Virus record (IMG/VR): IMGVR_UViG_3300002179_000002
Location: 11,861 to 75,860 of that record
Length of the DNA: 64,000 nucleotides
Source: a virus
Taxonomy: Duplodnaviria; Caudoviricetes
Reading direction: 5' to 3' (one strand)
The notes under the pieces are model-generated. The model worked only from the letters and a program-made list of their open reading frames with translations, was not told the DNA's origin and did not search any database. This document shows positions 3 to 43,411 of this stretch, in pieces (position 1 is the first letter of the stretch; each line of letters opens with the position of its first letter). Made by a program: the position numbers and the translations under genes.

Positions 3-1076
3 GATGAATCTGGAAAGATAAAAGCAGATGATCTTGAAGAGTTAATTACATATGCATTTACTAATAAAGAATTTGCAGAATTTTTACAGACAATACCTTC
101 AGATAGTGAAACTCCTACTGAGAAGAAAAGTATATTCTCTGAACTTAAAAATATTATAACAGGATTTATAAAGAAGTCATTTGGTAAGACTGCATTAGAT
201 GATATTGAAGAAGTAGTCAACAAATATTTCAATATTGATTGGAATGTTAACGAATATAAAGAAAGAAATGATAGATACTGGCATGAGAAGTTTAAAGTGT
301 CAGAACACATCAAAAAAGCCATTCAACTCGGTATCATTCCTACTGAGAAAGTAAATGAGATAGTAAAAGCATTAAATCACAAATATCTCAAAAAGGAGAT
401 GAAGAATGGGAAGTGGGTGTACACTTACTATGAGAATCAAAATGACCAAGCTGTTGAGCGGAAAGAAGATTTCTTAGATGATTTAAAACAGAATTATGTT
501 ATTGATTATGATAAAAAGGATAAAATCGTATTCAACAACTTCTATAGGAATTATCCTAATGAAATGTTAAGTCACCAATGTTCTGTAAAGGTGATTGGAG
601 CTTTGTCTAATAATCTACCTGAAAATATCGTTAGTCATTTGTCTAAAGCAAGACTACAGTTGGTTGATCAGAGTAAATACGAAAGAGAATCTAATGGATA
701 TTGGGTCGGAGCGTTTAATGAAGACTACAATGAAATAAGTATAAATAAGCAACTATACGATGAAATTGCAACAGATTGGTATGGTCAAGAGCAATATACA
801 AAAGTTATATTGCATGAATATGGACATAAGCTCTATAGAGATGATAAAATAACCGCTGAGAATTTGGTTGATCTATGGTATACGAAAGAAAGAGTATCTC
901 ATCAGGCAGAAATGGATGAAGAAGAGAATTGGTGTGAATCCTTTGCTGCATTCGTTATGGCATTGGGTGATGAAGGTGATACAGAAGATAATAGAGATTT
1001 GAAAGATCTTAAAGAAGAATTCCCTAAGACATATGAAATTATAAAGAACTTAATATCTGAAATGAATGAAAACTAA
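3..1076 (+). CDS. 5'-truncated multi-domain protein with zincin metallopeptidase domain(s); putative head-packaged cargo protein
   Basis: Frame 3 is open from base 3 into the listed 297..1076 ORF, so that ORF is only the C-terminus. HEYGH plus VSHQA...ENWCESF form a zincin; the upstream EELITYAFTNKEFAEFL resembles the tail of a second zincin; internal IVKA-LNHKY module. Confidence 0.7.
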   Translation, partial: DESGKIKADDLEELITYAFTNKEFAEFLQTIPSDSETPTEKKSIFSELKNIITGFIKKSFGKTALDDIEEVVNKYFNIDWNVNEYKERNDRYWHEKFKVSEHIKKAIQLGIIPTEKVNEIVKALNHKYLKKEMKNGKWVYTYYENQNDQAVERKEDFLDDLKQNYVIDYDKKDKIVFNNFYRNYPNEMLSHQCSVKVIGALSNNLPENIVSHLSKARLQLVDQSKYERESNGYWVGAFNEDYNEISINKQLYDEIATDWYGQEQYTKVILHEYGHKLYRDDKITAENLVDLWYTKERVSHQAEMDEEENWCESFAAFVMALGDEGDTEDNRDLKDLKEEFPKTYEIIKNLISEMNEN

Positions 1077-1503
1077 GATAGACACAAAACAAGTTCTTGA
1101 ACTGGATGGGTTCTTTAAAAGATTTAGTACAAAGAGTGACGATCCAAAGACAGAAGTTGTCGAAGAAAAAGACATAGAAAAAGCCTTCTCTCACATATCT
1201 GACCTCTATATAATGGATCAGATCAGTGATGAGATATACAATGCAGCAAAAGAGAGATATGAGATACAGAAAGCACAAAAAGAAAAGTTGATCGGTGGCA
1301 GAGCTGATGGTAAGACATTAGAAGATATAGCTGCACATCACAACATAGAGGTAAGTGCACTCCAGGAGCAGTACAAGATGGGTATGGAAGAAGAGAAAGA
1401 ACATACGAGTGATGAAGAAGAGAGAAGTGAGATAACAAAAGATCATCTGATGGAAGATAGTAAGTACTATACAAAACTAGAGAAGAACATCGTTAGTGAA
1501 TAA
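1066..1503 (+). CDS. DUF5661-like protein with IEKA/IQKA leader
   Basis: GGRADG...MGMEEEKEHT...KDHLMEDSKYYTKL motif; lies directly upstream of the prohead protease. Confidence 0.6.
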   Translation: MKTKIDTKQVLELDGFFKRFSTKSDDPKTEVVEEKDIEKAFSHISDLYIMDQISDEIYNAAKERYEIQKAQKEKLIGGRADGKTLEDIAAHHNIEVSALQEQYKMGMEEEKEHTSDEEERSEITKDHLMEDSKYYTKLEKNIVSE

Positions 1504-1515
1504 TAGATAAATAAA

Positions 1516-2340
1516 ATGGAAGATAATAAATTTAATTTCTTTGTCCCTATTAATGATGAATTATTAGAGAAAGCATCTAAATTACCAAAATCAGATAGAT
1601 ATAAAAATATGTTTCTTGAAGGGATGGCTTCTGATAATTCACAAGATATAGAAGGTGAAGTATTAGAACCTAACGGATATGAGATTGACCACTTTTTGAA
1701 AAATGGACTGATAAATTACGAACATTTGTCTAAAAGGAGCCCAAAATACTGGATTGGCTCTCCTGTTAAAGCTGAGATTAAAAATAATGAATTCCATATA
1801 AAAGCACAACTATGGGAGAACAGTGAAATAGCAAGAGACACTTGGGATAAGATTATTGAGATGAAAGAGTCTGGATCTGATAGAAAAGTCGGTTGGAGCA
1901 TCGAAGGAAAAGCACTGAATCGTTCTACTACTAATCCAAAACATATCACCAGGGCACTTATAACTAACTGTGCCATAACATTTTCCCCGGTTAACGGAAA
2001 TTCTTATGCGGATATAGCTAAAGGTCTTCAGAAGGAAGATTATATAGATCCTACCTACGATCAGGATTCAGATGAGAAAGAATATATTATGGAGTTTGAG
2101 AACAAAGGTAAGAAGTATAGGGTAGGTAAAGACTATAAAGTATTTGAGGTATTAACTAAATCTATGGATGTAGCTGCAGTAAAACCACTCACACCTGAAA
2201 GTTTAGATAAGAAACCAAAAAATATTAGCCTACCTGACATTAAAAAGGCATTAGATAATATATTGAAACATAAGAGTTTATTTGATGGAGACAGTGATTT
2301 TAAAAATAAAGTCATTAAATTAGTTAAAAATTCTTTGTAA
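1516..2340 (+). CDS. Prohead (capsid maturation) protease
   Basis: EGMASD..QDIEGE, INYEH and GWSIEG motifs of the Herelleviridae/HK97-type protease; position before scaffold and capsid genes. Confidence 0.9.
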   Translation: MEDNKFNFFVPINDELLEKASKLPKSDRYKNMFLEGMASDNSQDIEGEVLEPNGYEIDHFLKNGLINYEHLSKRSPKYWIGSPVKAEIKNNEFHIKAQLWENSEIARDTWDKIIEMKESGSDRKVGWSIEGKALNRSTTNPKHITRALITNCAITFSPVNGNSYADIAKGLQKEDYIDPTYDQDSDEKEYIMEFENKGKKYRVGKDYKVFEVLTKSMDVAAVKPLTPESLDKKPKNISLPDIKKALDNILKHKSLFDGDSDFKNKVIKLVKNSL

Positions 2341-2344
2341 ATAT

Positions 2345-2380
2345 TTTATTTATTCAAAATTATATTTTAATTTTATAAAC
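2345..2380 (+). promoter_or_regulatory. Putative promoter (TAATTTTA element at 2368-2375)
   Basis: Motif recurs in intergenic gaps and resembles the Bacteroidota TAnnTTTG element. Confidence 0.45.
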
Positions 2381-2423
2381 TTAATAGTTAGTTTAGTATT
2401 CTGAACATAGAAACGACACAAGA

Positions 2424-3281
2424 ATGGAAAATCAAATTAATATAATGTCTGTAGAGGAAGTTGATGAACTTAGAAAGTCATTGACTGATCTTGGCATGGA
2501 AGAAACAGAAGTCAACTCCTATATCGAAAAGGCTATGAAGGTCGAAAAGAAAGAAGAGAAAGAGTCTAGTTCAGAACAAACCATGGGAGAGAAAGCTGAA
2601 AAGACTGGCGAAGCAAATGAAACTTCTGCTGATGAAGCAAAAGAGACTCCTGCAGAACAAGCTGAAGAGAAAAAAGAAGGTGAAGAAAAACCTATAGTCA
2701 AGAGTGAAGATAAAGAAGAAGACTTAGAAAAATGTCTTACTGAGATGAAGTCCAAGAAAGCTGAGATTGAGAAATCAATTGATGAGATGGAACTGAAGAT
2801 GGGTAAGAAGAAACCAGAAGAGAAAAAGGAAGAAGAAATTCATAAATCAGTAGACATTGACATTGAGAAAGCCTTTGGTGAACGTTTCATGGACATTGAA
2901 AAGTCACTCACTGAGAAGTTCGAAGATAAGTTTGATGAACAGAACGAGATCATAAAGAGCCTACAGTCTGAGATCAAGAAGATAGGTGACACTCCTATGG
3001 GAACAAAATCAGTTATTACTAAGGCTACTTTCTTTGAAAAGAGTTTGAGTAATGAAGAAGACGTAGAGAATGCTGAGAACAAAACACTCTCTATTTCTGG
3101 TAACAAAGATGAAATTTTAAAGGGTATGGAAGACATGCTCAATAAAGAGAAAGATGCCGACGTTAGACAAGTAATCGAAAACGGTATTTTAGACTATACA
3201 GTTAATACACGTCCTACTGGACACGGCTACAAGGCACTTGCTCTTTTAGCACATAGAAAAAATATTACTCTGGAGCAGTAA
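2424..3281 (+). CDS. Capsid scaffolding protein
   Basis: Acidic coiled coil between protease and capsid genes, with many x-x-K-[S/A] sites (IEKA, IVKS, IEKS, IHKS, IIKS, FEKS). Confidence 0.8.
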   Translation: MENQINIMSVEEVDELRKSLTDLGMEETEVNSYIEKAMKVEKKEEKESSSEQTMGEKAEKTGEANETSADEAKETPAEQAEEKKEGEEKPIVKSEDKEEDLEKCLTEMKSKKAEIEKSIDEMELKMGKKKPEEKKEEEIHKSVDIDIEKAFGERFMDIEKSLTEKFEDKFDEQNEIIKSLQSEIKKIGDTPMGTKSVITKATFFEKSLSNEEDVENAENKTLSISGNKDEILKGMEDMLNKEKDADVRQVIENGILDYTVNTRPTGHGYKALALLAHRKNITLEQ

Positions 3282-3317
3282 TTTTTAGTATTTCGTTAGA
3301 TAATTAAATATAATAAT

Positions 3318-4808
3318 ATGTTTGACATTCATGATTCATTAGGCAAGAATGCTGAGAATTACTCCGATGAGGATATTATCAAAGCAATCGTTGCTGGTAG
3401 TCAGACAGGTCGCGATCTAACAGATACGCTATCGTCTGGACCTTCCCTGAAACCTGAGTCACTTGACCCAGTTGTAAAGGTGTTGGAAAATAAAGAAAAC
3501 CATATTGTACTTTGGAAATTACTTCCTAAAAAGAGTGTTTACAATACAGTACATGAGTATAACCAATTAACCAGTTATGGTGCTGATGTAGGAATCTTCA
3601 TGAATGAAGGTGAATCTCCAGAACAAACTGACTCTGTTTACAGACGTAAGGCTGCTCTTGTAAAGTATGCTGGTATCCAAGGTGAACTGACACAACAGTC
3701 AATGCTTGTTCGCCAGGCTGACGGTAAAGATCCGTACACTCGTGAGGTTGAAAATAAGACCTTGAAACTCTTAACCCAGTTGGATCAGAAACTTTCAGGT
3801 TCTGACAATGCTATGGTTCCTCAGGAATTTGATGGTATTTTCAAACAACATTATGCAGGTGTCCTTGACATCACTGCTGGAACAGGTTTGGATACTTATG
3901 CTAACGACCCTACTTTCATTGATGCTCGTGGTAAAGCATTGAAAGATTCTCATGTAGAAGATGCAGTACAGGCAGTTGTTAATGATCGTTTTGGTGAAGC
4001 AACCAAAATCATCTCCAACCCTGTTGTTTTCAATGACTATGTAAAACGTTTCCATGAAAGCAAACGTGTAATGGTTGGTGCACCTAGTTCAGCTACTGAA
4101 GGAGCTACTATGGGTCAGAAGGTTAATGATATCATGACTCAGTTTGGGAAAATTGATGTTGTCAATGATATCTTCTTCGATCGCAGAACTCCTAAGGCAT
4201 ACAATGCTGCAGCTGTTTCAGCTAAGGCTCCTGCCGTTCCTACTGCTGTGAATAACACCAGTTTGACTATCGCTTCTGCTGATACTTCAACCAAATTTAC
4301 TGATGCTGCAGGTGGATACTTCTATGGAGTAACTGCTCGTAATCAGTATGGTGAATCAGCAATGTGTGCAATGAACACTACTATCAAGGCTATCGCAGCT
4401 ACTGAATCTGTTGACTTAGTATTTGTTGCAGGTGTTGGTACTTATGCTGCTACTTCCTTTACTGTTTATCGTACTGAGAAGAACGTCGCTGTATATACAA
4501 CTGCTAAGTATTATCCATTGTTTGAAGTATCAGTAACACAATTAGCTGCTGCTTCAGGTTATGATGGTGCTGCTCAGTATGGTGTACGTGATCGTAACCG
4601 AGTAATTGGTAACACACATTCAGCACTTGTTTTAGATCCTAATTCAGATATGTGGGAATATATCCAGTTAGCTGCCACGATGAAAATCGACTTTGCTATC
4701 ACTACTTTGGCTCGTAGGTTTGCCGTAGTTAATTATGGTACTCCAGTTTTATATATGCCAGGTAAGATCGCCATCATCCATAATATTGGACGAGATATCA
4801 CTGCTTAA
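3318..4808 (+). CDS. Major capsid protein (SPO1/Twort-like)
   Basis: GPSLKPESLD, NTVHEYNQL..YG and EFDGI motifs; predicted propeptide ending at IIK/A (K22-A23). Confidence 0.93.
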   Translation: MFDIHDSLGKNAENYSDEDIIKAIVAGSQTGRDLTDTLSSGPSLKPESLDPVVKVLENKENHIVLWKLLPKKSVYNTVHEYNQLTSYGADVGIFMNEGESPEQTDSVYRRKAALVKYAGIQGELTQQSMLVRQADGKDPYTREVENKTLKLLTQLDQKLSGSDNAMVPQEFDGIFKQHYAGVLDITAGTGLDTYANDPTFIDARGKALKDSHVEDAVQAVVNDRFGEATKIISNPVVFNDYVKRFHESKRVMVGAPSSATEGATMGQKVNDIMTQFGKIDVVNDIFFDRRTPKAYNAAAVSAKAPAVPTAVNNTSLTIASADTSTKFTDAAGGYFYGVTARNQYGESAMCAMNTTIKAIAATESVDLVFVAGVGTYAATSFTVYRTEKNVAVYTTAKYYPLFEVSVTQLAAASGYDGAAQYGVRDRNRVIGNTHSALVLDPNSDMWEYIQLAATMKIDFAITTLARRFAVVNYGTPVLYMPGKIAIIHNIGRDITA

Positions 4809-4833
4809 ACAATAGACGTATCAACGAAGAAAT

Positions 4834-4870
4834 GACGGGAGGGGTAGATCTCCTTCCGTTTTTCTTTTTA
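4834..4870 (+). terminator. Rho-independent terminator after the capsid gene
   Basis: Stem gacgggagggg/ccttccgtt followed by a T-run. Confidence 0.75.
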
Positions 4871-4880
4871 TTCACATTTT

Positions 4881-4888
4881 TAATTTTG
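4881..4888 (+). promoter_or_regulatory. Bacteroidota-type -7 promoter element (TAATTTTG), 4 nt before an ATG
   Basis: Exact TAnnTTTG match immediately after the terminator. Confidence 0.55.
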
Positions 4889-4892
4889 TTAT

Positions 4893-5435
4893 ATGATTAA
4901 GATTAGCACAGCAGTTTCAAGTAATTTCGGGCATGAAGTTATTTTCGGAAGTTTAACATTGAAGTTTGATAAGTTAGGTAATGCAGAAGTCGCAGACCAG
5001 AAGATTGCAGACCAATTAACTACAAATTATGCAGGTTGGTTATTTCAGGGTGAAGTAACAATGAAAAAGGGTAATAAAGCAGTTGATGTAAATAATACCC
5101 AAATACAGGCTGATTTAGAAAGAGCACTTGAGAAAGTTGAATCTAGAGAATCAGTTATCAGTTCATTGGAGAATGAAGTGAAAGAGTGGAAAGAACAAGT
5201 AAACTTATATAAAGACAAATCTGAGAAGGCAGAAGCTGAGTTAGAGGGTTACAAAATCCAGAGTGATAAAATCATTAAAGAACTCGAATTGAAAGTTGGT
5301 TTAACCAGCAAAACTCAGAAGGAACTGGTTGAGTTCTGCATAAGACTGGAAATTCCAGAAGAAAGATACAAAAATCTTACTAACAAAGCCGAAATCATCA
5401 ACGTTATACTCGACGAATCAAGAATTAAAGAATAA
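4893..5435 (+). CDS. Hypothetical coiled-coil protein with C-terminal HeH/Rho-N-like motif
   Basis: Full ORF after the capsid gene; TQKELVEFC...KAEIINVIL at the C-terminus. Confidence 0.65.
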   Translation: MIKISTAVSSNFGHEVIFGSLTLKFDKLGNAEVADQKIADQLTTNYAGWLFQGEVTMKKGNKAVDVNNTQIQADLERALEKVESRESVISSLENEVKEWKEQVNLYKDKSEKAEAELEGYKIQSDKIIKELELKVGLTSKTQKELVEFCIRLEIPEERYKNLTNKAEIINVILDESRIKE

Positions 5436-5441
5436 GAAAAC

Positions 5442-7033: not shown

Positions 7034-7093
7034 TTTATATTCTTTATAAATAATAAATAAAAATATTTCGTATCAGTTTTAATATTAATTTTA
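7033..7093 (+). promoter_or_regulatory. Promoter with upstream 19-bp palindrome (7033-7051), TTCGTA box and TAATTTTA (7086-7093)
   Basis: The same architecture recurs at about 29.1, 41.8 and 52.6 kb. Confidence 0.6.
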
Positions 7094-7109: not shown

Positions 7110-8108
7110 ATGGACTTCCAACAGAAGATACGAGAAGAACAAATAAGAGATAAAATTAATATCATCAAGGCTACACTGCCAGAAATTGAAAAAGGTGGAG
7201 AAGGCAGTAGAGGGGGTAAAATTATTGGTAGAACTAAGAGTGGTCAACCTATTTATGCCAAGTCTCATAATATGCCATATGAAACTTATAGTAAGGAAGA
7301 CCATAAAGATGCTGCTGAAGCACATAGTTTTGAACATAGATCTGCAGAAGACAAATTGGAGAATACTCACGACCCTGTAAAAAGAAAGCAATTACAAGAG
7401 AGTATTAAAATGCATAGAGAAAATGCAGAGGGTCATATCCGAAGAGGTGATTCTATTCAAAAATCAGCGTTTGATGAGTTCGAACCAGACATGGAGAACA
7501 TAGAGAAGTCACTACATGTATTCGGTAAATATCTCGGTGAAGAAGAACTGGATAAGTTTGAGAAGTCAATCAACCATAAATATTTTAAGAGAGAGCCAGT
7601 AGCAGGTGGTGGATACAAGTACTACTACACTGAAGCTGATTATAAGAAGGAGAAGGGCGTTGGCGAGAATAAATCAGATGAGAGTGATAAATTAGTTAAT
7701 CTTGCAATAGCTTCTTTATTAAAAGAATACGGAAATCCATTGTCAACAAAACATCGATCAGATGGTTCAGTTTTGAACTATAAGAAAAATAAATTTTTTG
7801 TTGACTTAGAGGGTAATATTAAAGCAGAAAAGAAAAGGACGGGCGATAAGAAAGAAGAGAATGAACTTGAAAGCATTTTTCATAGATTAAATAAAGTTGA
7901 AGAGTCCAAGAATACAGAGAATAAGAGTGAAGAGAAATTTGATCATACATTTTTTGATGATTATTCTCTAACTGGTAAAGAAAGAGAAATCATTATGAGA
8001 GCTAAAGGAAAAGATAAAGATTTAAATGAATTACAAGATCTTCATGATAATTCTTCAAATATTGATCAAAAAGGAAGAGATTATATTAGAAAATTTATGC
8101 ATAAATAA
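7110..8108 (+). CDS. Putative head-packaged modular protein (IEKG-GEGSRGG and FEKS-INHKY modules)
   Basis: Several x-x-K-[A/S/G] sites; HKY module shared with ORF 3..1076. Confidence 0.65.
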   Translation: MDFQQKIREEQIRDKINIIKATLPEIEKGGEGSRGGKIIGRTKSGQPIYAKSHNMPYETYSKEDHKDAAEAHSFEHRSAEDKLENTHDPVKRKQLQESIKMHRENAEGHIRRGDSIQKSAFDEFEPDMENIEKSLHVFGKYLGEEELDKFEKSINHKYFKREPVAGGGYKYYYTEADYKKEKGVGENKSDESDKLVNLAIASLLKEYGNPLSTKHRSDGSVLNYKKNKFFVDLEGNIKAEKKRTGDKKEENELESIFHRLNKVEESKNTENKSEEKFDHTFFDDYSLTGKEREIIMRAKGKDKDLNELQDLHDNSSNIDQKGRDYIRKFMHK

Positions 8109-10271: not shown

Positions 10272-12200
10272 ATGTCAACAAAAGTTCGCTTCGGCAATAA
10301 AATAGTTCAACTTCCAGGCACCTACTCTAGAATAGTAGCAGGACAGAATAATCCTCCTAGAGATTTAGATTATGGTAAGTTATTGATTATAGATAATCAA
10401 AACCTTAATGCGTCTCTTGCAAATAATGGCATGTTAGGCGGTGCTGGTATTGCTGGTACGCTTGTTTCAGGTAAGAATGCAGTTTACTCAGTAAAAGATA
10501 TTCAAGCATTTAGAGACTTTGTTGGTGCTGGTTGGTGGTATAAAGCCGCTGAAGGATTGTTTAATCCCGATGGCAACAATAATGGTGTATCCGAAATATT
10601 CATAGTTAAACCCGCCACTACAACCCCTGCTTTATTATCATTCATTCCTACTGGAGGTGGAGCGGCTGGTGGTACATTCAAAGTCAAAACAAAAGATGAA
10701 GGTACAGCAGCTAACGGTAATCCTGATGAGACAAGAGCAACTTCTACAGTGACAGTAACTGCTGCTGGATCAACTGCTGATAAAATCACAATTAAAGTAT
10801 CTGGAGTAACAGTAGCTGAATATACCAATGCTTCAAGTGATAGCATAGCAACTATGGTTGCAGGACTTGCTGCTAATATGACGTTATTGGGAATATGTTT
10901 AGTAGTATCTTCTACTTCTCCTGCATTAGCATTCAAAGCACCTGTTGGATATGGAGCAACAACAGTAACTCCTACAGTAACAGTAACAGGCGGTGCAACA
11001 GGTTCTGCAGTAGCATTTGCAGGTGGAGTAACAGCAACTAACCTTTTATCAGGTTATGCTTATAAGATTGAGACAGGTGTAGTTGATACAGCAAAATGGA
11101 TTTTCAAGATTTGGAGAGGTAATTATAAAGGTTTATATTCAGACAATATTCCTTATGATGAAATCACTTCAGCTAATTCAAGACCTACATTAGTAGCACA
11201 GTCACCAGAGTTCAATAATGTTCAGACATTGATTGATTGGGCTTTGACTGACAGTACATTTGGTAAATTATTTGTATTGGATGCCACTTCTGCTAAGACA
11301 GGTGCAGGAACAGTTACTTCAGCTGACATAACAGCTAACACTGGTTATAGGGTTGCTTCTACAGGTACTGCAACTTATGATTCTATTGATGATGCATTAG
11401 ACGCAATTAAAGACTTAAATTATAGTGCAATATTAACTACTTGTTCAACAGCTAACCCTTCAACTGATACTACTATTCTTAAGATAGTTGATCATATTGA
11501 AAACGAAGCTAAGTTCGACAAACATCTCTATATAGCAGGTGATGATAATGATGTTGATACTTCTGTTGGTTATGCTGAAACATTTGACTCAGAGAAAGTC
11601 ATATTGGTTCATGGTGCTATTCAAAAAGTAAGCAGATTAGCTGCTAGTGGCTTTAGAGTTTGGGAACAGTTCTTTCATACAGCCTATAATGTAGGTAGGG
11701 TATTAGGATTAGCTCCACAAGTACCTTTGACATTCAAATCACTTGATATTGATGGTTTAGTATCTCCACTGAATGTTAAAGACCAAGAGAAAGCTGATGC
11801 AGCAGGTGTATTGGTAACAGTATTTGATGAGGACTTTGGTAAGTTCATCAACCTACACGATGTAAACACATTACAGGATAGTGATTTTGTATTAACAAAT
11901 GCAGGTACTTCACACCTTATTCAGATAGAACGTATCAAAGCTCAGTTGAACAAGGAACTTATCATCAATGCTAAACTTGACCTGATGTCTGATCCTAACG
12001 GTGTCAATCGTTCTTCATTAACCGAAGAGGATGCTATTGAATGGACTAAAGGCTATTTAGGTCGTAAAATGGGAACCCTGATTGTAGCTTGGAGAAATGT
12101 TACTGCAACTACTTCTGGTGACTTCCTATTTGTAACTTATGAGGCATCTCCTAATACTGAGATTAAAGGTGTTTTCTTCACTGGTGGACTTTACATATAA
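10272..12200 (+). CDS. Contractile tail sheath protein
   Basis: 642 aa; LPGTYS N-terminus, PLTFKSL and DVNTLQ sheath motifs; followed by the tube gene. Confidence 0.9.
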   Translation: MSTKVRFGNKIVQLPGTYSRIVAGQNNPPRDLDYGKLLIIDNQNLNASLANNGMLGGAGIAGTLVSGKNAVYSVKDIQAFRDFVGAGWWYKAAEGLFNPDGNNNGVSEIFIVKPATTTPALLSFIPTGGGAAGGTFKVKTKDEGTAANGNPDETRATSTVTVTAAGSTADKITIKVSGVTVAEYTNASSDSIATMVAGLAANMTLLGICLVVSSTSPALAFKAPVGYGATTVTPTVTVTGGATGSAVAFAGGVTATNLLSGYAYKIETGVVDTAKWIFKIWRGNYKGLYSDNIPYDEITSANSRPTLVAQSPEFNNVQTLIDWALTDSTFGKLFVLDATSAKTGAGTVTSADITANTGYRVASTGTATYDSIDDALDAIKDLNYSAILTTCSTANPSTDTTILKIVDHIENEAKFDKHLYIAGDDNDVDTSVGYAETFDSEKVILVHGAIQKVSRLAASGFRVWEQFFHTAYNVGRVLGLAPQVPLTFKSLDIDGLVSPLNVKDQEKADAAGVLVTVFDEDFGKFINLHDVNTLQDSDFVLTNAGTSHLIQIERIKAQLNKELIINAKLDLMSDPNGVNRSSLTEEDAIEWTKGYLGRKMGTLIVAWRNVTATTSGDFLFVTYEASPNTEIKGVFFTGGLYI

Positions 12201-12234
12201 TCGTTTATAAAAAGACTTCAAATAACACAAAGAT

Positions 12235-12714
12235 ATGCCTGACGAAAAAACAATGACCGCAGCTAAAGCAATTATCAAAGTAAATGGTAAGGCTGTTGGC
12301 TTAATGAGTAACCTCAGAATAACAGAGAACAACCAATTGGGCTCAGTAATGGGACTAGGTAGATTAACTAAGGTTGAAGTACCTATTTTATCTATTACTT
12401 GCACATGGGCTTGTGACTTCTATATGATTGACCTTGTCAAGTCAGGTATTCCTGGTTTGGACAATAAAGCTGTACAATCACTTGATCAATATGTAGACAG
12501 CAAAGTACTTATCCCAAATGTGGTTGATATCGTTGTCTATAAGAAGGATGTCAAGACCATCACCAATGGTGTAGTAACTGCAACTAAAGGTAATGTATTG
12601 GCAGTTATCAGAGATGTATATCTTAATTCAACAGGTTGGAGTATCCAAGAAAATTCTATAACCATGATGCAACAGTCAGGGGAATATCTTACTCCAATAT
12701 TTCAAGCAATTTAA
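12235..12714 (+). CDS. Tail tube protein
   Basis: TAAKAIIKVNGKAVG...VMGLG; size and position. Confidence 0.85.
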   Translation: MPDEKTMTAAKAIIKVNGKAVGLMSNLRITENNQLGSVMGLGRLTKVEVPILSITCTWACDFYMIDLVKSGIPGLDNKAVQSLDQYVDSKVLIPNVVDIVVYKKDVKTITNGVVTATKGNVLAVIRDVYLNSTGWSIQENSITMMQQSGEYLTPIFQAI

Positions 12715-12747
12715 CAATCAATAATTTATAAACCTAAACAAGTAAAA

Positions 12748-13107
12748 GTGGAAAGTTTTAATTTCGTCATCAAAGGAAAATCTTATTCAACAAAACCATT
12801 AGTAGTTGGTAACGTGATTGATCTTTGGAGACTCAGATCAGCTCTGTCAGGTGGAACATATGGTCACCTATATCGTATGGCATTAGATGGTGCAGACCAA
12901 GCACTGGTTGCTATTGATATTGAAGCATTCGTTTCTATTTTCAGTCCTCCACAGTTATTGAAAGATCTAAAGGTAGAAAGTATTAGAGATTTAGGTATTG
13001 AAGACTACATGGAATTGAATGAGATTTATATCGAACAGATTAAACCTTGGCTGGATAAAGTTGAGGGCATGTTGAAGAAAAAAGAAGAGAAAACAGATAA
13101 TGAATAA
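12748..13107 (+). CDS. Tail assembly chaperone
   Basis: Position between tube and tape measure genes; size. Confidence 0.6.
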   Translation: MESFNFVIKGKSYSTKPLVVGNVIDLWRLRSALSGGTYGHLYRMALDGADQALVAIDIEAFVSIFSPPQLLKDLKVESIRDLGIEDYMELNEIYIEQIKPWLDKVEGMLKKKEEKTDNE

Positions 13108-20850: not shown

Positions 20851-22025
20851 TGGTAGACAAGTTATTAACCAATGTACTCCCTATTCCAGACTTAAAGGAG
20901 ATCTATATAGAGACACTGTTAAATCACACAAGCAAGATCTCAAAGATATCAGATCTGTCTGTGGTGAACGCACATGCATTCGGTGTCTCTAAAATATTTC
21001 AAAAGAATTTAAAGGATGTGGCAATTTTGGAGTCACAGGTATTTCCAGAATTGAGTTCAGGAACATATTTGGATAATGCTGCCAAACTTGTAGGATCAAT
21101 ACAGAGACTATCGGCATCAGGGTCATCTACATTTGTTTTAGTAATAGCTGAACCAGCCACAGTATATGTCCCAGGAGAATCAAGTTTCACTTCAAATCAA
21201 GGTGTAGCATTCAGTATAACAGAGTTAATCGTAGTTGGAATTAATGGTTATGCTTATATCCCAGTAAGAAGCTATTCGGTTGGTGTTAATACAAATGTAA
21301 ATGCTCTGACAATAAATAGTATCACTTCACCTCCTATTGGCCATATAAGCTGTACTAACGAGTATTCTGCTACGGGAGGGCGAGATGCAGAGAATGATGA
21401 AGACTTTAAATTAAGAATCTCAACTTTTAGTCAATTTGCTGCTAAGAGCAATTTTGATAATATGATTGATAATCTGAGAACTTTAGATGCCGACATATTA
21501 GATATAAAGAGAGCAGGATATACTGAAGACGGGCAGATAAAACTGAATATAGTTACTTGTAATGGTAAGTCATTCACTGTCGATGAATTAAATGCATTTG
21601 AGAATCAGTTAAGTTCTTTTATGTCACTATCAGATGTAGATGAACAATCAGGGGTGCTAGGTGTGAAACTCGGTAATATTGAGTGGCATTCTGTAGGTGG
21701 AACAGGTGGTGTTGATTTTAGAATTGATCTTCAGTCTGGTTACTCAGAGACAGATGTAAGAAAAGCCATACAAGTACAGATGACTAAGTACTTTGATTTT
21801 AGATTCTGGACAAAGACAAAAATAGAGTGGGATGACCTGTTACAAATAGTCAAGAGTATTGCAGGAGTCAAATATGTGCCAGATGAATACTTCCTACCAC
21901 ATGTCGATACAAGTGTAGCTACAACTAAACTGCCAAGAGTGATTAAATTCATAATGAGAGACATGTTAGGCAATATATTGTATGATAACAATAGTGCAAT
22001 TTTACCTATTTATTACAACGTGTAA
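20850..22025 (+). CDS. Baseplate J-like protein
   Basis: SGTYLD and TNEYSATGGRDAENDEDFKLRI motifs. Confidence 0.88.
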   Translation: MVDKLLTNVLPIPDLKEIYIETLLNHTSKISKISDLSVVNAHAFGVSKIFQKNLKDVAILESQVFPELSSGTYLDNAAKLVGSIQRLSASGSSTFVLVIAEPATVYVPGESSFTSNQGVAFSITELIVVGINGYAYIPVRSYSVGVNTNVNALTINSITSPPIGHISCTNEYSATGGRDAENDEDFKLRISTFSQFAAKSNFDNMIDNLRTLDADILDIKRAGYTEDGQIKLNIVTCNGKSFTVDELNAFENQLSSFMSLSDVDEQSGVLGVKLGNIEWHSVGGTGGVDFRIDLQSGYSETDVRKAIQVQMTKYFDFRFWTKTKIEWDDLLQIVKSIAGVKYVPDEYFLPHVDTSVATTKLPRVIKFIMRDMLGNILYDNNSAILPIYYNV

Positions 22026-22906
22026 TGGAAGACATTCAAAAATCAATTCAAGACAGTTTCGATCTACAGAAAGAGTGGATTGAAAAATCTATTGAAGGAG
22101 TTGTTGGTGAAATCAGATTCTGGGGTGGTGAGAGATATCAGAAACAATCTGATAAATCTTGGAAGAGAATAAGTTTAAAAGATACTTTCGTTGAAATAGA
22201 TAATTTGACTGAAGGCAACTCAACACTTAGATGGTTATTTTATAATATGTCAATGTTTGATCAAACTTCAATACCATTCAAAAACAAAAAATTTATTTAC
22301 AAGTCAATTTATCCATTAAAATCAAAATATAAGATAAAGGGAGATAAATATTGGTTAATTGACTTGAATGATAACACTAAATATGCTGGGGCAAATAGTA
22401 ATACTATGGAACTTAATCCATATTATTTTATAGATCTTGATGCATTTGAAGTATTGATAGATAAAGATATTAGAGATAATCATCATCCTAAAGTCAAAAA
22501 TAAAATTCAATCGCTTATATATCATGAGTTTTCTCATTCTTTAACACAATCTGATATAAAGTTTAAAAGTGGTTCATTTAATGAACTATCTACTATTTAC
22601 AATGAATACGTAAGCGAAGTTGTGAGTGCTAGAAATAAAATTAAAGATGAGATAATCACTCTATCAAATACTATTACAACTTTGAGTTCAGGTACAGAAA
22701 GAGATACTTTAATCAGTGGTCTTAGAGTACTAAGTAGTGAACTTACAGAACTAACAATAAATAATAATCAATTTGTTTCTGAATACGCAGAACAAGATGT
22801 AGATGAGTTTACATCGGAATGTTTTGCAATGACAGCAGATTCAGATTGTAAGAATAAATATGCTTTGAAAGTTAAACAAGTAATCAATAAATACTATAAG
22901 AAATAA
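22025..22906 (+). CDS. Leader-bearing zincin metallopeptidase (putative packaged toxin/effector)
   Basis: HEFSH and FVSEYA....EFTSECFA motifs; leader is 15/22 identical to that of ORF 39797. Confidence 0.7.
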   Translation: MEDIQKSIQDSFDLQKEWIEKSIEGVVGEIRFWGGERYQKQSDKSWKRISLKDTFVEIDNLTEGNSTLRWLFYNMSMFDQTSIPFKNKKFIYKSIYPLKSKYKIKGDKYWLIDLNDNTKYAGANSNTMELNPYYFIDLDAFEVLIDKDIRDNHHPKVKNKIQSLIYHEFSHSLTQSDIKFKSGSFNELSTIYNEYVSEVVSARNKIKDEIITLSNTITTLSSGTERDTLISGLRVLSSELTELTINNNQFVSEYAEQDVDEFTSECFAMTADSDCKNKYALKVKQVINKYYKK

Positions 22907-29106: not shown

Positions 29107-29165
29107 TTATAATCATTTTAAATTAAGCCAATTATTTTTTCGTATTACTATTTATATTAATTTTA
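29105..29165 (+). promoter_or_regulatory. Promoter with upstream palindrome (29105-29123), TTCGTA box and TAATTTTA (29158-29165)
   Basis: Recurrent architecture. Confidence 0.6.
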
Positions 29166-37800: not shown

Positions 37801-37803
37801 AAT

Positions 37804-38835
37804 ATGGATTATCAGAAAATTTATGATCAAATAGTTATTAGAGCTAGATCTGAGAATAGAAAAAAGAAACAGGGAATTTACTACGAGAATCATCATATTT
37901 TGCCCAGAGGCTTAGGTGGTAGTGACATTGATGAAAATTTAGTTTTGCTTACTGCCAGGGAGCATTATATCTGTCATAGATTACTAGTTGAGATATATGT
38001 AGGAAATTCAACATTGGCTTATGCTTTGTGGATGATGGTTCATTCAAAGACAAAATTTCAACAACGAGATTATAAAATATCTTCGCGAGAATATGAGAGG
38101 CATCGAATTATGCATGCCGAGAATGTTTCTAAGAATCAAAGTGGAGAGAACTCGTCGTTTTATGGCGTTCATAGATATGGAGAGGATTCTTATAGATGGG
38201 GGATGACGCATACAGAAGAAACTAAATTAAAAATTAGTATTACTAAGACAGGGGTAACAATGTCTGTGGAAGTGAGAGAAGCAATAAGTAAAGGGCATTC
38301 GGGCGAGAAAAGCATATGGTTCGACGTTCATAGATATGGAGAAGATAATCCAAATTTTGGACATTTGTGGACAGAGGAAATGAAACTTAGAGATAAAGAA
38401 ATAATGCTGAATAAAGAAGATATTATTTGCCCCTACTGTGGCGTGTCTGGTCATCCCTCTATAATGAAAAGGTGGCATTTCGATAATTGCAAAATGAATC
38501 CCAATAGAGAGAAGAAATTATTATTTAAGTGTGATTGGTGCGATTATACTAGTGAAAACGAAGTTAACATACGTAGAAGGCATAATGATAAATGCAAAGA
38601 AAATCCAGATAGAATCATAACGATTTATGAGTGCGAATTCTGTGGGTTTACTTCAACTGAAAAAGGACACATTACTAATCATAAACGATTTTGTGAGTTA
38701 AATCCCGAAGGAAAAGCAAGACCCATAATAACTTGCGAATATTGTGGACTACAGAGTACTAATCAAGCTAATATGACACGCTTTCATGGAGACAAATGCC
38801 CCTCTCCAAACAACCCTTTAAATGAACAAGTCTAA
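37804..38835 (+). CDS. Free-standing HNH homing endonuclease with NUMOD3 motifs and four C-terminal CCHC fingers
   Basis: ENHHILPRGLGGSD..ENLVLLTAREHYICH; HTEETKLKIS; four CxxC...H...C units. Confidence 0.85.
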   Translation: MDYQKIYDQIVIRARSENRKKKQGIYYENHHILPRGLGGSDIDENLVLLTAREHYICHRLLVEIYVGNSTLAYALWMMVHSKTKFQQRDYKISSREYERHRIMHAENVSKNQSGENSSFYGVHRYGEDSYRWGMTHTEETKLKISITKTGVTMSVEVREAISKGHSGEKSIWFDVHRYGEDNPNFGHLWTEEMKLRDKEIMLNKEDIICPYCGVSGHPSIMKRWHFDNCKMNPNREKKLLFKCDWCDYTSENEVNIRRRHNDKCKENPDRIITIYECEFCGFTSTEKGHITNHKRFCELNPEGKARPIITCEYCGLQSTNQANMTRFHGDKCPSPNNPLNEQV

Positions 38836-39796: not shown

Positions 39797-41308
39797 ATGG
39801 AAGATATTTTTAAATCGATTCAAGAGGGTATTAATTTACAGAGAGAGTGGATCGCGAAGTCGTTTACGATCAATATTGATATCGAAAAGGGAAAGAAGTC
39901 TCCTATTGGAGCTATTCACGTTAATAAACAAGGAACTTGGGTCAAAGTATCTGATACTGGTAATGGTCACAAGGATTGGGTTTTGGAGAAAAAAGTTAAG
40001 TCTGAATCTAAAATCGAAGAGAAGGAAGAGTGTTCAAAATCAGAATTAAAATCAGAGAAAATTAAAATGAATGAGAGTTTCCCGAAAAATTTTAATATTG
40101 CTAGGGAGAATCTGACGACATCAGAAATGTTTCAAAAAACATCAAAAGGAAAATTTAAAGATCAAAATGAACTATATGATAAATTAGGAGGCAAAGAGAA
40201 TTTAGAGAAAAAATTAAAAAGTTTTATTAATGACAGTGCCGTTTATATGGCTATTAAGAGTGGAACGCTTATTAGAGAGATTATTAATAAATCAGACGCA
40301 TTTAAAAATAGTCTTGAAACGGGAAAAGGGTCTTTTAAAACGATTGGAGAAGAGAGAACGCTGAAAGAGAAGTTTATTTTTGGCATAGATACAGAAGCTA
40401 ATTCAAGCGAAGCAGATAATTTTCCAAAATACGGATTTATTTCTTCAAAAGAAGAGATGAGTTATGAACCTATCTCCGAAGGAAATTATGGAAATGCATA
40501 TGTAAAATTTAAGACATCTGCTGTCAAAGATAGAACTAGTATTACTTTGGGAGATTCGTTCAATGATAATGGTTCTATCTCGTATAAAGGTCAAATAGAT
40601 TTAACTTCTGTAGCGCCCCCTACTAAATTAAATGATGTAGATGATAAACTCATTTGGGGCATTAATAATAATGATCCTAACTCAGATATGTGGAATAAAA
40701 TAAATGAAGCTAAAAATATTGATGAATTTACAGAAGCATCTGTTTCTTCATATATGGAAGCTCAAATATATGGGAAGCTGTCTATAGATGATGTTGATAG
40801 CATTTTTGTAAGTTCTATAAAGGAAGCAGATTCTTTTAACGCAGCGTTGAAAAAGGCAGGTAGAGAAATAAAAGTTTTGCCTTGTAAATTTGATAATAGA
40901 TTAAACAATCTTGTGGGTGGTTATCATAGAGGGGATGGTCCTAGATATCGCGCTTCATTAAATCCAAGTGATATTGATAATCTTGGCGATTATTACATAG
41001 ATATATTAGCTAATAAATGGCTTGCTGAGTCAGAAGTTGAAGTTAAGCATAATGCATTACCCTCTGGACTAGTTTTACTTGCTAAAAAATATAATCAGTT
41101 TACTAAAGATGAGCAAGGTCGTAAGGTAAGAATTCATTCAGATATAAGTATGGAAGACAAAAGAAATTGGCTTAAGAAATTCTACGAACTAATGTCTAAT
41201 GGAGATGATGGAGGAATGCCTTTCTTTTGGCGTGAAGATTATAGAAAAACAATAGGAGGATTCACTGATGATGTGATGAATAAGAAACTATTGATAAAAT
41301 ATAAATAA
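39797..41308 (+). CDS. Leader-bearing DUF3626-like protein (possible ADP-ribosyltransferase fold), putative packaged effector
   Basis: FKNSLETG...PKYG...YG...KDRTSITLGDS...YMEAQIYG; leader and module shared with ORFs 22025 and 42152. Confidence 0.65.
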   Translation: MEDIFKSIQEGINLQREWIAKSFTINIDIEKGKKSPIGAIHVNKQGTWVKVSDTGNGHKDWVLEKKVKSESKIEEKEECSKSELKSEKIKMNESFPKNFNIARENLTTSEMFQKTSKGKFKDQNELYDKLGGKENLEKKLKSFINDSAVYMAIKSGTLIREIINKSDAFKNSLETGKGSFKTIGEERTLKEKFIFGIDTEANSSEADNFPKYGFISSKEEMSYEPISEGNYGNAYVKFKTSAVKDRTSITLGDSFNDNGSISYKGQIDLTSVAPPTKLNDVDDKLIWGINNNDPNSDMWNKINEAKNIDEFTEASVSSYMEAQIYGKLSIDDVDSIFVSSIKEADSFNAALKKAGREIKVLPCKFDNRLNNLVGGYHRGDGPRYRASLNPSDIDNLGDYYIDILANKWLAESEVEVKHNALPSGLVLLAKKYNQFTKDEQGRKVRIHSDISMEDKRNWLKKFYELMSNGDDGGMPFFWREDYRKTIGGFTDDVMNKKLLIKYK

Positions 41309-41336
41309 AATGATTAGACGAACATAGATAAATAAA

Positions 41337-41837
41337 ATGGAACAACCAGTAACCAAGTCAAGGGATCTTTCGTTAATAGACTTCTATTCTGTACTTCAAC
41401 AAGAATTCATCTCCTATTATGTACGTTCGAAGATCTACCCGAAACCTTTCTCAGAGAAGTATAAGAACTATTGTATCTGCAAGAGGGACAAGATTGAGAA
41501 GATAAGTGAGAAGAATAACTTGCCTTCTATCTTCAACAGCAACAGCACAAAAGAACGATGTATCAGAGAGTTTTTTGCTGAGTATGGCCTCCCTAATTTT
41601 GAGTATAGAGATGAGAAGTCAAAGTCTATAATGGGACGTTGGGACTCAATCTATTTCTTCCGAGAGGGAGTGAAAGTGAGGATCAAACTCGACAGTGAAT
41701 ATCTCGACCTGCCCGTCATTAAGAATATGTTCTCAGATAATAGCGTCACAGTAAAAGTAAAGGGAGAATTGGAGCAGTTCAATTACTCCTATGTATCTAG
41801 AATACTGACTGACTCGTTGGTCGATTGGGACATCTAA
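41337..41837 (+). CDS. Hypothetical protein
   Basis: 166-aa ORF with an A-rich leader. Confidence 0.6.
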   Translation: MEQPVTKSRDLSLIDFYSVLQQEFISYYVRSKIYPKPFSEKYKNYCICKRDKIEKISEKNNLPSIFNSNSTKERCIREFFAEYGLPNFEYRDEKSKSIMGRWDSIYFFREGVKVRIKLDSEYLDLPVIKNMFSDNSVTVKVKGELEQFNYSYVSRILTDSLVDWDI

Positions 41838-41907
41838 TCAATAACGATTATAAATTATGAGAAATATAAGATTTATATTTTTCGTATCAGTTTAATTATT
41901 AATTTTA
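41837..41907 (+). promoter_or_regulatory. Promoter with upstream palindrome (41837-41855), TTCGTA box and TAATTTTA (41900-41907)
   Basis: Recurrent architecture. Confidence 0.6.
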
Positions 41908-41930
41908 TGGCAAATTAAAAAGAGAAGATC

Positions 41931-42107
41931 ATGAAACCATTTGAAATTGATATTGAATTGGAAACTGTTACAATTAAACTTTTTGCCAAAAATAAAACTG
42001 AAGCCAAAAAGAAAGCTCTATTAAAGTTGAGTAAAATTAATCCCACTAAACTTATTAGTAAAAGCTGGCCTGATAAAAAGAAAAACATTGATGTAAACGA
42101 AGTGTAA
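41931..42107 (+). CDS. Small basic hypothetical protein (58 aa; not in the ORF track)
   Basis: MKPFEIDIELETVTIKLFAKNKTEAKKKAL... lies directly downstream of the promoter. Confidence 0.6.
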   Translation: MKPFEIDIELETVTIKLFAKNKTEAKKKALLKLSKINPTKLISKSWPDKKKNIDVNEV

Positions 42108-42151
42108 TGAATTTTAATTAATAATTTTAACGCTACAAAATATTCAACAAA

Positions 42152-43411
42152 ATGAGCATAGAAGACGACATCCGCAAAGCACAAGAACAACAGAAAGAGA
42201 TACTAAAATCTTTTTATGGCAGTGAGGCCACTCCCGATCTTGTGAAGAGAGTAGAGACTGATATCGAGAAGGCTAAGAAATCTCCCATCGGGACGATCCA
42301 CGTGAACTCAGCCGGGACATGGAAGAAGATGACAGACACTGGCGATGGCCATAAAGACTGGGTAAGAGTTAAGAAAGGTGACAAAGATCATCCTGAAACA
42401 CCTAAGACTGAAGAAAAGAAAGAAGAACCTAAGAAAATTGATTGGGCTGCTAGAACTGCTCCTGAAGAGAAACCTACATATGATTTTAAAGTTGGAGATA
42501 AGGTTAAATTAGGCGATGATATTAATCTAGTGTCTTTATCTGATTTAAAAGGAAAAACATTAGAAGTAGTTGGGGAAGAGAAAACAGATTTGATTAGTCA
42601 ACCTACTTTTATTAAAGTTAAACTTCCTGATGGTGAAGTAAAGTCATTTAGTCCAGACTATCTGAAGAAGTTTGATGAGAAGGAAGAGAAAAGTAAAGAA
42701 GAGAAAGATGAATTTTATATGAAAAGGGAATTAATATCTTCTATAGATAATTCAGAACATGAAAAAGTTTCAGAACTTTCAGATAGAGATTTAAAATATC
42801 GTTTAGACACCCTTACTTCTATATCCAGACATACAATTCTTAATGCTTCAGCTTCAAAAATGTTGCGTTCATTAATTCAAGAAAAACAGTCTAGGTATGC
42901 TAAGTCTGAACCCAAGAAAGAAGAAGAATTCAAAGTTGAAGTTCCCAAGGAAGAAATTGTTTTATTAAATAAAATTAACGCATTAGATAAAGAATTTAAA
43001 GCAAAAAATATTAAGAGTGATTATGATTATTTTATGACAAGTGAAGGAGTGAAAGCTAAAGATAAAATTGATGAGTTGAGAGTTAAATATAATGATTTAA
43101 GAGTTAAAAGATTCATTGCATTATTAGCTGATAGTAAAGCTAAGCCTGAACCCAAGAAAGAAGAAGTAAAACCAGTAGAAGAGAAGAAGGAAGACAATTC
43201 ACTTGAAGAAGCTAACAGGGAATTTAGAGATCGTAAGAAATCTCTTTATAAAACATTTGCTGCAATGTCATCTAATCAATGCAGTATCAAGGCAGCTAAA
43301 GAAGTAGCAAAGAAATTCAAAATCAGATATCAAGACATTCTTAAAACCAAAACTCCTGATAATAATCTTGAAGGAGATAAAGGGTGGGATAAGAATGGAG
43401 ATATTAAATAA
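42152..43411 (+). CDS. Leader-bearing modular protein with KOW/SH3-like domain, putative packaged cargo
   Basis: 39-aa module 29/39 identical to ORF 39797; FKVGDKVKL KOW-like segment; EPKKEE linkers. Confidence 0.65.
   Translation: MSIEDDIRKAQEQQKEILKSFYGSEATPDLVKRVETDIEKAKKSPIGTIHVNSAGTWKKMTDTGDGHKDWVRVKKGDKDHPETPKTEEKKEEPKKIDWAARTAPEEKPTYDFKVGDKVKLGDDINLVSLSDLKGKTLEVVGEEKTDLISQPTFIKVKLPDGEVKSFSPDYLKKFDEKEEKSKEEKDEFYMKRELISSIDNSEHEKVSELSDRDLKYRLDTLTSISRHTILNASASKMLRSLIQEKQSRYAKSEPKKEEEFKVEVPKEEIVLLNKINALDKEFKAKNIKSDYDYFMTSEGVKAKDKIDELRVKYNDLRVKRFIALLADSKAKPEPKKEEVKPVEEKKEDNSLEEANREFRDRKKSLYKTFAAMSSNQCSIKAAKEVAKKFKIRYQDILKTKTPDNNLEGDKGWDKNGDIK
42899..43166 (+). repeat. 28-bp direct repeat (42899-42926 and 43139-43166, one mismatch)
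   Basis: gctaag[t/c]ctgaacccaagaaagaagaag, 240 bp apart and in frame. Confidence 0.8.

Follow-up and report, generated by a model that had tools for sequence, protein, structure and literature searches.

A lysine motif of the head proteins opens six scattered polyvalent-type phage proteins: a candidate set of capsid-packaged cargo

The stretch of DNA analysed here, called the window, covers 64,000 nucleotides and corresponds to bases 11861-75860 of a 75,860-base virus record in IMG/VR (IMGVR_UViG_3300002179_000002; Caudoviricetes), whose completeness is estimated at 69%. Every long open reading frame (ORF) of the window is on the + strand. The subject of this report is a group of six ORFs scattered over the first two thirds of the window. 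An earlier note, made from the letters alone, had described them as proteins that combine a leader, a K-[A/S/G] site, a small module and a variable C-terminal cargo, and had proposed that they are packaged in the capsid and injected with the DNA. All six are present at the positions given below. From the sequence features described here, we lean slightly towards regarding them as one functional set of phage polyvalent-type head cargo that is packaged and cut. The six ORFs and the head genes among them are as follows; "tag" denotes the site motif, a slash the boundary after its lysine, h a hydrophobic residue, and x or a dot any residue.

3..1076, + strand: C-terminal 357 amino acids of a polyvalent protein; the window edge cuts an 845-residue ORF (10399-12936 of the record, G000).
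285..452, + strand: second junction and NHKY module of the 845-residue protein, ..HIKK/A..EIVK/ALNHKYLKKEMKNGKWVYTYYE; first row of the module B profile.
813..827, + strand: HEYGH zincin motif of the second metallopeptidase-like domain of this protein (SprT-like match at E 0.005, below the cut-off).
1066..1503, + strand: solo DUF5661 protein, with tag sites DIEK/A (K39) and EIQK/A (K69) before the domain.
1516..2340, + strand: prohead protease (phrog_1028, 7.4e-38), with sites DIAK/G (K169) and DIKK/A (K244) in the C-terminal tail.
2424..3281, + strand: scaffold, with seven strict tag sites.
3318..4808, + strand: major capsid protein (phrog_752, 1.4e-62), with a predicted propeptide junction DEDIIK/A after K22 (nucleotides 3372-3386).
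7110..8108, + strand: solo protein with a leader containing NIIK/A and EIEK/G, a degenerate module A, FEK/S plus NHKY module (7485-7652) and an uncharacterised tail.
22025..22906, + strand: solo protein with the leader MEDIQK/S..WIEK/S (22025-22090), module A (22076-22213) and a HEFSH zincin-like cargo.
39797..41308, + strand: solo protein with the leader MEDIFK/S..WIAK/S..DIEK/G (39797-39889), module A (39878-40015) and a DUF3626-like cargo (residues 120-503).
42152..43411, + strand: solo protein with a leader containing DIRK/A, EILK/S and DIEK/A, module A (42260-42397) and a Lys/Glu-rich cargo.

The head module, in the order protease (1516), scaffold (2424) and major capsid protein (3318), is followed by genes for neck, tail and baseplate, which extend to approximately 29 kb. 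Beyond this point come small genes, the large terminase (34661), a DnaB-like helicase, a homing endonuclease and a primase, and downstream of the primase lie genes of nucleotide metabolism and those for DNA polymerase, SbcCD and UvsX-like proteins. Capsid protein identity is 34-35% with Bacteroides phages DAC16-23, 33.5% with Chryseobacterium phage MA9V-3 and about 30% with Herelleviridae of Bacillus, and the phage appears to be a large lytic myovirus of SPO1-like type rather than a prophage. For comparison, nine related IMG/VR loci (capsid 74-85% identical) were analysed by BLASTP and Pfam, and a 94-kb relative, G001, was compared gene by gene.

The tag of the six proteins is also the motif of the head proteins. 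As the earlier note had claimed, it is common to the scaffold and the propeptide junction of the capsid protein; it is also found in the tail of the protease, and relatives retain it at all three places. All seven close relatives listed keep the capsid junction DEDI[IVL]K/A, three distant relatives have ..VLK/AMEAG, ..LQK/AMEAG and ..LQK/AMQAG, and the protease tail site ..IKK/A is retained together with five to eight scaffold sites per ortholog. In the Herelleviridae phages SPO1L5 and YungSlug, the capsid protein has ..LNK/AL.AG at the same position and the scaffolds contain 10 and 14 h-x-K/[SAG] sites. Two further loci, L028 and L033, found via a small module-B protein, have the capsid junctions ..LMK/ALSAG and ..LQK/ALEAG and scaffolds with 10 and 13 sites.

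The enrichment of the motif in the six proteins was analysed with two forms. The first, [DEN]I.K[ASG], was selected with the candidates already inspected; it is found in 9 of 77 proteins, which are exactly the protease, the scaffold, the major capsid protein and the six candidates. The second, strict form, [DE][IL].K[ASG], gives a fairer test because its definition leaves the candidates out and is taken from the protease, scaffold and major capsid protein only (10 sites in 1055 amino acids). With this form, the six candidates have 12 sites in 2537 amino acids (4.73 per 1000) versus 9 in 20658 amino acids of the 77 other ORFs (0.44), and the K-[A/S/G] motif is thus enriched over background, as had been expected, by about 11-fold (Fisher's test per lysine, p=3.6e-5). 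Composition-keeping shuffles of the candidates (1000 rounds) yield a mean of 1.5 and a maximum of 6 sites. The strict sites are located at residues 6-69 in all five solo proteins, and in other ORFs they are mid-chain. The result is replicated in G001: three proteins, selected there because the module A profile matches them, together have 8 sites in 1207 amino acids, versus 11 in 27071 amino acids of 107 other ORFs (p=2e-5).

The mixing of leaders and modules is seen among three of the solo proteins. In BLASTP against the 91 + strand ORFs of the window, the leaders of 22025 and 39797 match with 15 of 22 residues identical (E 1.6e-4), and the whole N-terminal match between 39797 and 42152 extends over 77 amino acids with 49% identity (E 3e-15); their 39-residue module is 29/39 identical by count, as previously reported. 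Module A has the consensus IGE.R.W.G..Y.K...G.W..V, module B, the NHKY module, has HKY.KRE..G.Y.Y.Y, and module C is helical. In relatives, the module A profile detects additional copies, with E values from 1e-12 to 1e-24. Neither module A nor module B matches a Pfam family, even at E 5 and with the LPD families included, and homolog searches with residues 1-75 of 39797 or with a three-row module B alignment return the window's own proteins only. Two of the proposed memberships hold in part. The NHKY module said to be common to 3..1076 and 7110 is real as a profile, being found in 268 proteins, whereas the pairwise match is weak (47 amino acids, 32%, E 0.1); and 1066 has the site motif but no leader or module in common with the other five in the window.

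The earlier note had suggested searches with module profiles together with a tally of the cargos, and these return, besides the module A copies, a large module B family with diverse cargos. A profile of the junction plus module B (56 positions, six rows), searched against 1.84 billion representatives, finds the 268 proteins at E<=1e-3 and 29 of them at E<=1e-10. The hits are 68-3105 amino acids long and have up to four module copies each. Among the 60 large hits listed (>=500 amino acids), 42 were scanned, and 15 of these contain Phage_Mu_F, MuF_C, PBECR2, ddrB-ParB, Kinase-PolyVal, ART-PolyVal or LPD1. Other families in the 42 are NUDIX (12), DUF5661 (5), Zeta_toxin (3), RelA_SpoT (2) and SNF2 (2), and 11 are without any family. 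The smaller hits (<500 amino acids) are mostly blank, with no family in 81 of 88, and many of them consist of a leader, ..LEK/A.GHKYFKREG.PGNYKYYYTE and an uncharacterised tail. A lysine stands four residues before the H and is followed by A, S or G in 154 of 195 modules, a count biased upward because the profile contained those columns, and a hydrophobic residue stands two before the lysine in 169 of 195. The h-x-K-[A/S] site thus belongs to a module of wide occurrence and is no special trait of this phage. Judged from these matches, module B is a linker that is widespread among canonical polyvalent proteins and so far uncatalogued.

It is very improbable that no family exists and that the shared pieces are due to chance or low complexity in ORFs rich in Lys and Glu. 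The pairwise E 0.1 between 3..1076 and 7110, as well as the failure of 1066 to match any of the other five, would agree with such an explanation, but it is contradicted by the match of 39797 with 42152, by the 29 module-B proteins at E<=1e-10 among 1.84 billion, by the copies of module A in relatives and by both enrichment tests, in the window and in G001.

The ORF 3..1076 of the earlier note is truncated by the window edge. The full ORF of 845 amino acids has, in this order, a coiled N-terminus with tag sites, a NUDIX domain (PF00293, 5.2e-23), a tag with an NHKY module, a first HExxH domain, a second tag with an NHKY module, and a second HExxH domain. The first NHKY copy, ..LQK/ALNHKYIRKE..KWGYIYEE, precedes the HETLH domain, and the second, ..IVK/ALNHKYLKKE..KWVYTYYE, the HEYGH domain. 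Thus at least two disparate domains, NUDIX and the two HExxH domains, are joined in one polypeptide, the zincin calls consisting of the motif plus sub-threshold SprT-like matches. Of the "zincins" of the earlier note, the HExxH motifs are therefore present and the family matches stay below the threshold.

A gene for a MuF-like protein of 304 amino acids ends 40 bases upstream of the 845-residue ORF, outside the window, and the local order is MuF-like gene, 845-residue ORF, DUF5661 gene, protease, scaffold and major capsid protein. The 304-residue protein matches the minor head protein phrog_115 at 4.9e-4. Its six-row profile aligns with Pfam-confirmed MuF proteins by hhalign at 90.3% (E 1.5e-6) over 112 columns, including HP.CRC; it has no Pfam match at E<=0.1, and pairwise BLASTP to MuF proteins is uninformative. 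The statement that no MuF domain is evident was accordingly true inside the window only, since the window boundary cuts the gene off. Beside this MuF-like gene, the 845-residue protein is a classical polyvalent protein.

Orthologs of the 845-residue protein in the nine loci keep residues 1-330, as far as the junction PQVKIIRKA..G.IP.E.V..I.K/A, and then diverge. The variation of cargo past the tag, which had been predicted, is seen by BLASTP and Pfam in their continuations:

L008 and L009 (1397 amino acids), past the junction: HKY module, weak GNAT match, Kinase-PolyVal (in L009 PF18762, 2.4e-31) and more domains.
L011, past the junction: HKY module and DUF5661.
L012, past the junction: DUF5661 at once, and further on a DUF3626-like domain with a match to the cargo of 39797.
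L010: the ortholog ends at the junction, and the next gene opens with a fresh leader and HKY module.
L014, C-terminus: a helical module also found in 1066, then module A.

A 1459-residue protein encoded upstream of a NUDIX gene in phage MA9V-3 was also considered as a polyvalent protein and was rejected; it is fibre/depolymerase-like and has few sites.

The cargos of the solo proteins are diverse. The protein 1066..1503 is a DUF5661 protein, as had been supposed, with 44.9 bits (1.5e-11) against a Pfam gathering cut-off of 27 bits, and its segments are found fused within the polyvalent proteins of L011 and L012; no literature that mentions DUF5661 was found. Pfam gives no family for 7110, 22025 and 42152, and Phage_Mu_F has no match in any of the six proteins at E<=0.1. 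The ESM Atlas model of 7110 is of low confidence and has no usable structural neighbour. That of 22025, whose HEFSH motif is at 22523-22537, has a predicted template-modelling (TM) score of 0.68, and its nearest cluster, 99% Phage_Mu_F, aligns with residues 56-293 at a TM score of 0.63, which we take as a lead only. For 42152, neither the Pfam nor the phrog scan gives a family for the cargo, and the earlier "KOW-like" assignment is dropped, no Pfam family matching. Further searches with the solo proteins are negative in their respective databases: tblastn of 39797, 22025, 42152 and 7110 against 50,697 phage records gives no match, word-based IMG/VR scans with 39797, 42152 and 22025 find no relative, and in the PDB no sequence matches 39797, 22025 or the protease at an E value below 0.1.

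The cargo of 39797 is the most informative. Its "DUF3626-like" label is half right: the score exists (23.7 bits) and is under the 27-bit cut-off. At E<=1e-3, 43 homolog clusters are found, 31-40% identical and most of them spanning more than 90% of the cargo, and their precomputed Pfam matches include Phage_Mu_F in 9/43 and DUF3626 in 7/43. A scan of 26 of the 43 finds Phage_Mu_F in 4, DUF3626 at E<=1e-3 in 14 (8 above 27 bits), and ADPrib_exo_Tox and DRAT in one each. Pfam-blank homologs of 826-856 amino acids have the N-terminal ..RLAR.EINMAYRTAE.. and GWHPNC.C, and the consensus of a 35-row alignment retains the HPxCxC signature of MuF. Thus the 39797 cargo is, to judge from its homologs, a domain normally located C-terminal to MuF in other phages. 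The analogy with MuF drawn in the earlier note stands in this respect, as the cargo of 39797, and that of 22025 by structural neighbour only, are domains fused to MuF elsewhere. The Salmonella effector SopF has ADP-ribosyltransferase activity. DUF3626 is a domain of this type III effector (available text of PMC6682159).

The solo genes are, as far as gene order in relatives tells, insertions at variable genome sites. In G001, the fibre gene directly follows the baseplate wedge gene, so that the 22025 gene is absent there; a homolog of 41337 directly follows the primase, so that 39797 is absent as well; and the slot of 42152 has five unrelated ORFs. The portal gene of G001 (phrog_12, 5.3e-32) is flanked by module-A proteins of 323 and 512 amino acids. 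Similarly, the 7110 slot is occupied in relatives by different tagged proteins, for example one in L013 (6355-7473) with a MADIYK/S leader, DUF6496, module A and module B.

The six ORFs very probably belong to the class of phage polyvalent proteins and MuF cargo. The available text of Iyer et al. (2017; PMC5512222) describes polyvalent proteins as lying near virion genes, with MuF fusions, solo domain forms and a proposed processing into units. In the same way, a multi-enzyme protein lies here beside MuF and virion genes and solo domain forms are present; the domain vocabulary, including orthologs and module-B hits, is that of the class (NUDIX, zincin, Kinase-PolyVal, ART, DUF5661), and injection with the DNA, predicted for the class, is predicted here too. 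Hallmark families are the Kinase-PolyVal of the L009 ortholog and those in the 15 of 42 large module-B hits. The six proteins do not form a system separate from MuF and polyvalent proteins, 3..1076 being a polyvalent protein beside a MuF-like gene and NHKY a general polyvalent linker. Each of the other five proteins has one cargo domain, released as a gene of its own, and they are therefore classed as solo forms, not as polyvalent proteins. A position beside virion or late genes is found for 3..1076, 1066 and 7110; 39797 and 42152 are located in the replication region instead. Unlike the class in the available text of Iyer et al., much of the cargo is encoded here by solo genes dispersed to variable sites, of which two fall within the replication region, and the Lys motif that opens every cargo is the motif of capsid, scaffold and protease, which points to the prohead protease and not to MPTase. 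The text sections of PMC5512222, without the supplementary alignments, name no such linker. New here are the cassette with the head motif at every domain boundary and solo protein, and the dispersal of solo cargo genes as insertions.

From these features, the following course of events may be proposed. Each cargo would be opened by a cassette in which a leader or linker of amphipathic character contains the site [DE]-[IL]-x-K/[ASG] one to three times and precedes a small beta-hairpin-like module. The scaffold-like leader would carry the protein into the assembling prohead together with MuF, the leader or the module serving as a loading signal like that of P1 DarB (available text of PMC9024508). 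The prohead protease would cleave the capsid protein, the scaffold and itself after one Lys motif, would also trim the leaders, and would split the polyvalent protein into separate enzymes, reading the motif in the manner of gp21 with T4 internal proteins (PMC3012670) and of gp245 with SPN3US head and ejection proteins (PMC10052503), both as described in the available texts. The matured NUDIX, zincin-like peptidases, DUF3626/SopF-family domain, DUF5661 and others would remain in the head and then pass into the host with the DNA. We infer cleavage, packaging and injection alike from sequence. For the three dispersed solo proteins, packaging is nearly an even call, a little on the doubtful side.

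Several points weigh against this course of events. We infer the cut after Lys from conservation only; no literature on a Lys-specific prohead protease or on the Herelleviridae capsid cut site was found, nor a paper to confirm that a Lys near residue 23 marks the maturation cut of SPO1/Twort-like capsid proteins, as the earlier note had stated. Apart from the motif, BLASTP among window ORFs finds no likeness between the leaders and the scaffold, and modules A and B were rejected as one family (hhalign 1.2%). Other ORFs, among them the terminase and an SbcC-like protein, also contain strict sites, nine in all, so that the motif by itself is not diagnostic. The fixed spacing from h-x-K-[A/S] to HKY, kept across diverse proteins, may be structural and may not mark a cleavage site. 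The gene 39797 begins one base past the primase stop within the replication region, where 42152 is found too, and this location fits early cytoplasmic expression as well as packaging. Finally, Iyer et al. propose in the available text zincin peptidases instead of the prohead protease as the processing enzymes of polyvalent proteins (PMC5512222), and three zincin-like domains are in the cargo set.

The last point leads to an explanation in which the proteins are packaged but cut by the cargo's own zincin-like domains, two in the 845-residue protein and one in 22025, the likeness to head sites being secondary. Each of the three HExxH domains directly follows a tag and module, and the processing role proposed in PMC5512222 is that of MPTase domains. 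We nevertheless regard this explanation as rather improbable: many module-B proteins and orthologs, for example those of L009, L011 and L012, are tagged without a zincin in the chain, the capsid and scaffold of Herelleviridae share the motif beside a prohead protease, and the zincins here are below the Pfam threshold, with none matching MPTase-PolyVal.

Alternatively, the tag and modules may be structural linkers, a helix end plus a beta-hairpin, derived from polyvalent-type proteins. The solo proteins would then be unpackaged and uncut intracellular enzymes made early or mid-infection, and the motif density of the scaffold would reflect a similar helical, Lys/Glu-rich composition. The constant distance of four residues between tag and HKY would be expected of such linkers, the location of 39797, adjoining the primase, and of 42152 among replication genes is in line with it, and so is the lack of a recognisable domain in nearly all small module-B proteins (81/88). 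However, the composition-keeping shuffles reach at most 6 sites against the 12 observed, and other coiled or Lys-rich proteins are site-poor (none in 4893, one in the putative tape measure 13478). The presence of the motif in the tail of the protease and at a capsid propeptide junction that relatives conserve, the fusion of cargo homologs to the virion protein MuF, and the module-A genes on both sides of the portal gene in G001 also speak against it, and we consider this alternative unlikely.

The reading of the six ORFs as packaged and cleaved cargo has parallels in several known systems. In MuF polymorphic toxins, variable C-terminal domains are attached to a head protein (Jamet et al., 2017; available text of PMC5576092), and the 39797 cargo family is likewise found fused to MuF. 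In contrast to these toxins of temperate phages, MuF is here a separate 304-residue gene and part of none of the six proteins, and the phage looks SPO1-like and lytic. The terms "linker" and "cleav" are not found in the text of PMC5576092 as far as it is available. T4 internal proteins have a capsid targeting sequence (PMC3012670) and P1 DarB an N-terminal packaging signal (PMC9024508). As described in the available texts, both are like the present case in having a short N-terminal signal on otherwise unrelated proteins and a diverse cargo; the T4 and P1 cargo is anti-host, and in T4 the signal is removed by the head protease. The shared N-terminal signal here ends in a motif of the head proteins, presumably their cleavage motif. 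It has no sequence relation to those of T4 and P1, the T4-type motif being read after Glu and the present one after Lys, and the cassette serves here as an internal linker as well. Unlike in T4 and P1, the conserved module is located past the predicted cut and would therefore remain on the mature protein. The prohead protease of SPN3US cuts the propeptides of head and ejection proteins at one motif (available text of PMC10052503). In SPN3US and phiKZ, as here, one protease motif is found across capsid, portal, protease and ejection proteins, with several copies per propeptide and with paralog families; the motif itself differs, the propeptides are long, and domain swapping at the motif is not described in that text.

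If the six ORFs are packaged and cut as proposed, several consequences follow. Proteins injected with phage DNA are mostly unknown beyond a few model phages, and they decide the first minutes of infection, counter-defence included. A sequence rule would be available by which the injected effectors of a large group of phages, most of them uncultured, could be listed (module B is found in 268 representative clusters), the way in which polyvalent proteins come apart would be explained, and it would be clear how cargo genes can relocate in the genome and still reach the capsid. More tentatively, the cassette may be a portable, protease-read address label in phages with SPO1-like heads, with which any gene that acquires it would be loaded, trimmed and injected. 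A label between domains would make the giant protein a kit of separate enzymes inside the capsid. Should this rather speculative view be right, sequence data would suffice to read the injected proteome of thousands of uncultured phages, and foreign proteins could be directed into phage heads by means of the label. If the tag is a linker only, the finding reduces to a new, uncatalogued linker module of polyvalent proteins.

Some further observations concern the surroundings of the solo genes. A promoter-like motif, TTTCGT-N8-20-TAATTTTA, is found four times on the + strand, at 7066-7093, 29138-29165, 41880-41907 and 52617-52644, with 0.01 copies expected from shuffles; all four copies are intergenic. 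One is located 17 nucleotides upstream of 7110 and another is ahead of a small ORF preceding 42152. The latter is a short ORF of fewer than 60 amino acids that starts from ATGAAACC (window 41930-42110), just past the promoter-like motif in the 314-base gap before 42152. The motif was found in none of the relatives searched, and a sigma-70 and terminator scan of 38.5-44 kb gives fewer promoter-like sites than shuffles and no terminator. In L010, a GIY-YIG/NUMOD3 endonuclease gene (10756-11502) occupies the variable slot ahead of the 7110-like gene. The homing endonuclease gene of the window (37804-38835; phrog_655, 4.9e-54) lies between helicase and primase. The stretch 44001-52000 has a G+C content of 0.44-0.46, versus 0.33-0.39 elsewhere in the window, and contains thymidylate-synthase-like ORFs and the DNA polymerase.

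Other observations concern variable genes of relatives. L029 (1096-11362) and L030, which has the same genes, contain seven consecutive genes for proteins of 176-886 amino acids that have a common leader, ..HYGILGQKWG.RR.Q, and then diverge; this looks like a second, unrelated family of tag plus variable cargo. Directly upstream of the head protease, in the slot of this phage's DUF5661 gene, relatives have a ferritin-like gene (L009 5757-6248, Pfam Ferritin 1.7e-20; look-alikes by eye are L006 2784-3269, L007 71-562 and L014 608-1096). Ferritin-like proteins encoded within a head module are reminiscent of encapsulin cargo. In Bacillus phage YungSlug, an ORF annotated as "PARP polymerase" (L023 1-167, record 49344-51953) lies directly upstream of the portal gene and may be another ADP-ribosylation cargo of a head module.

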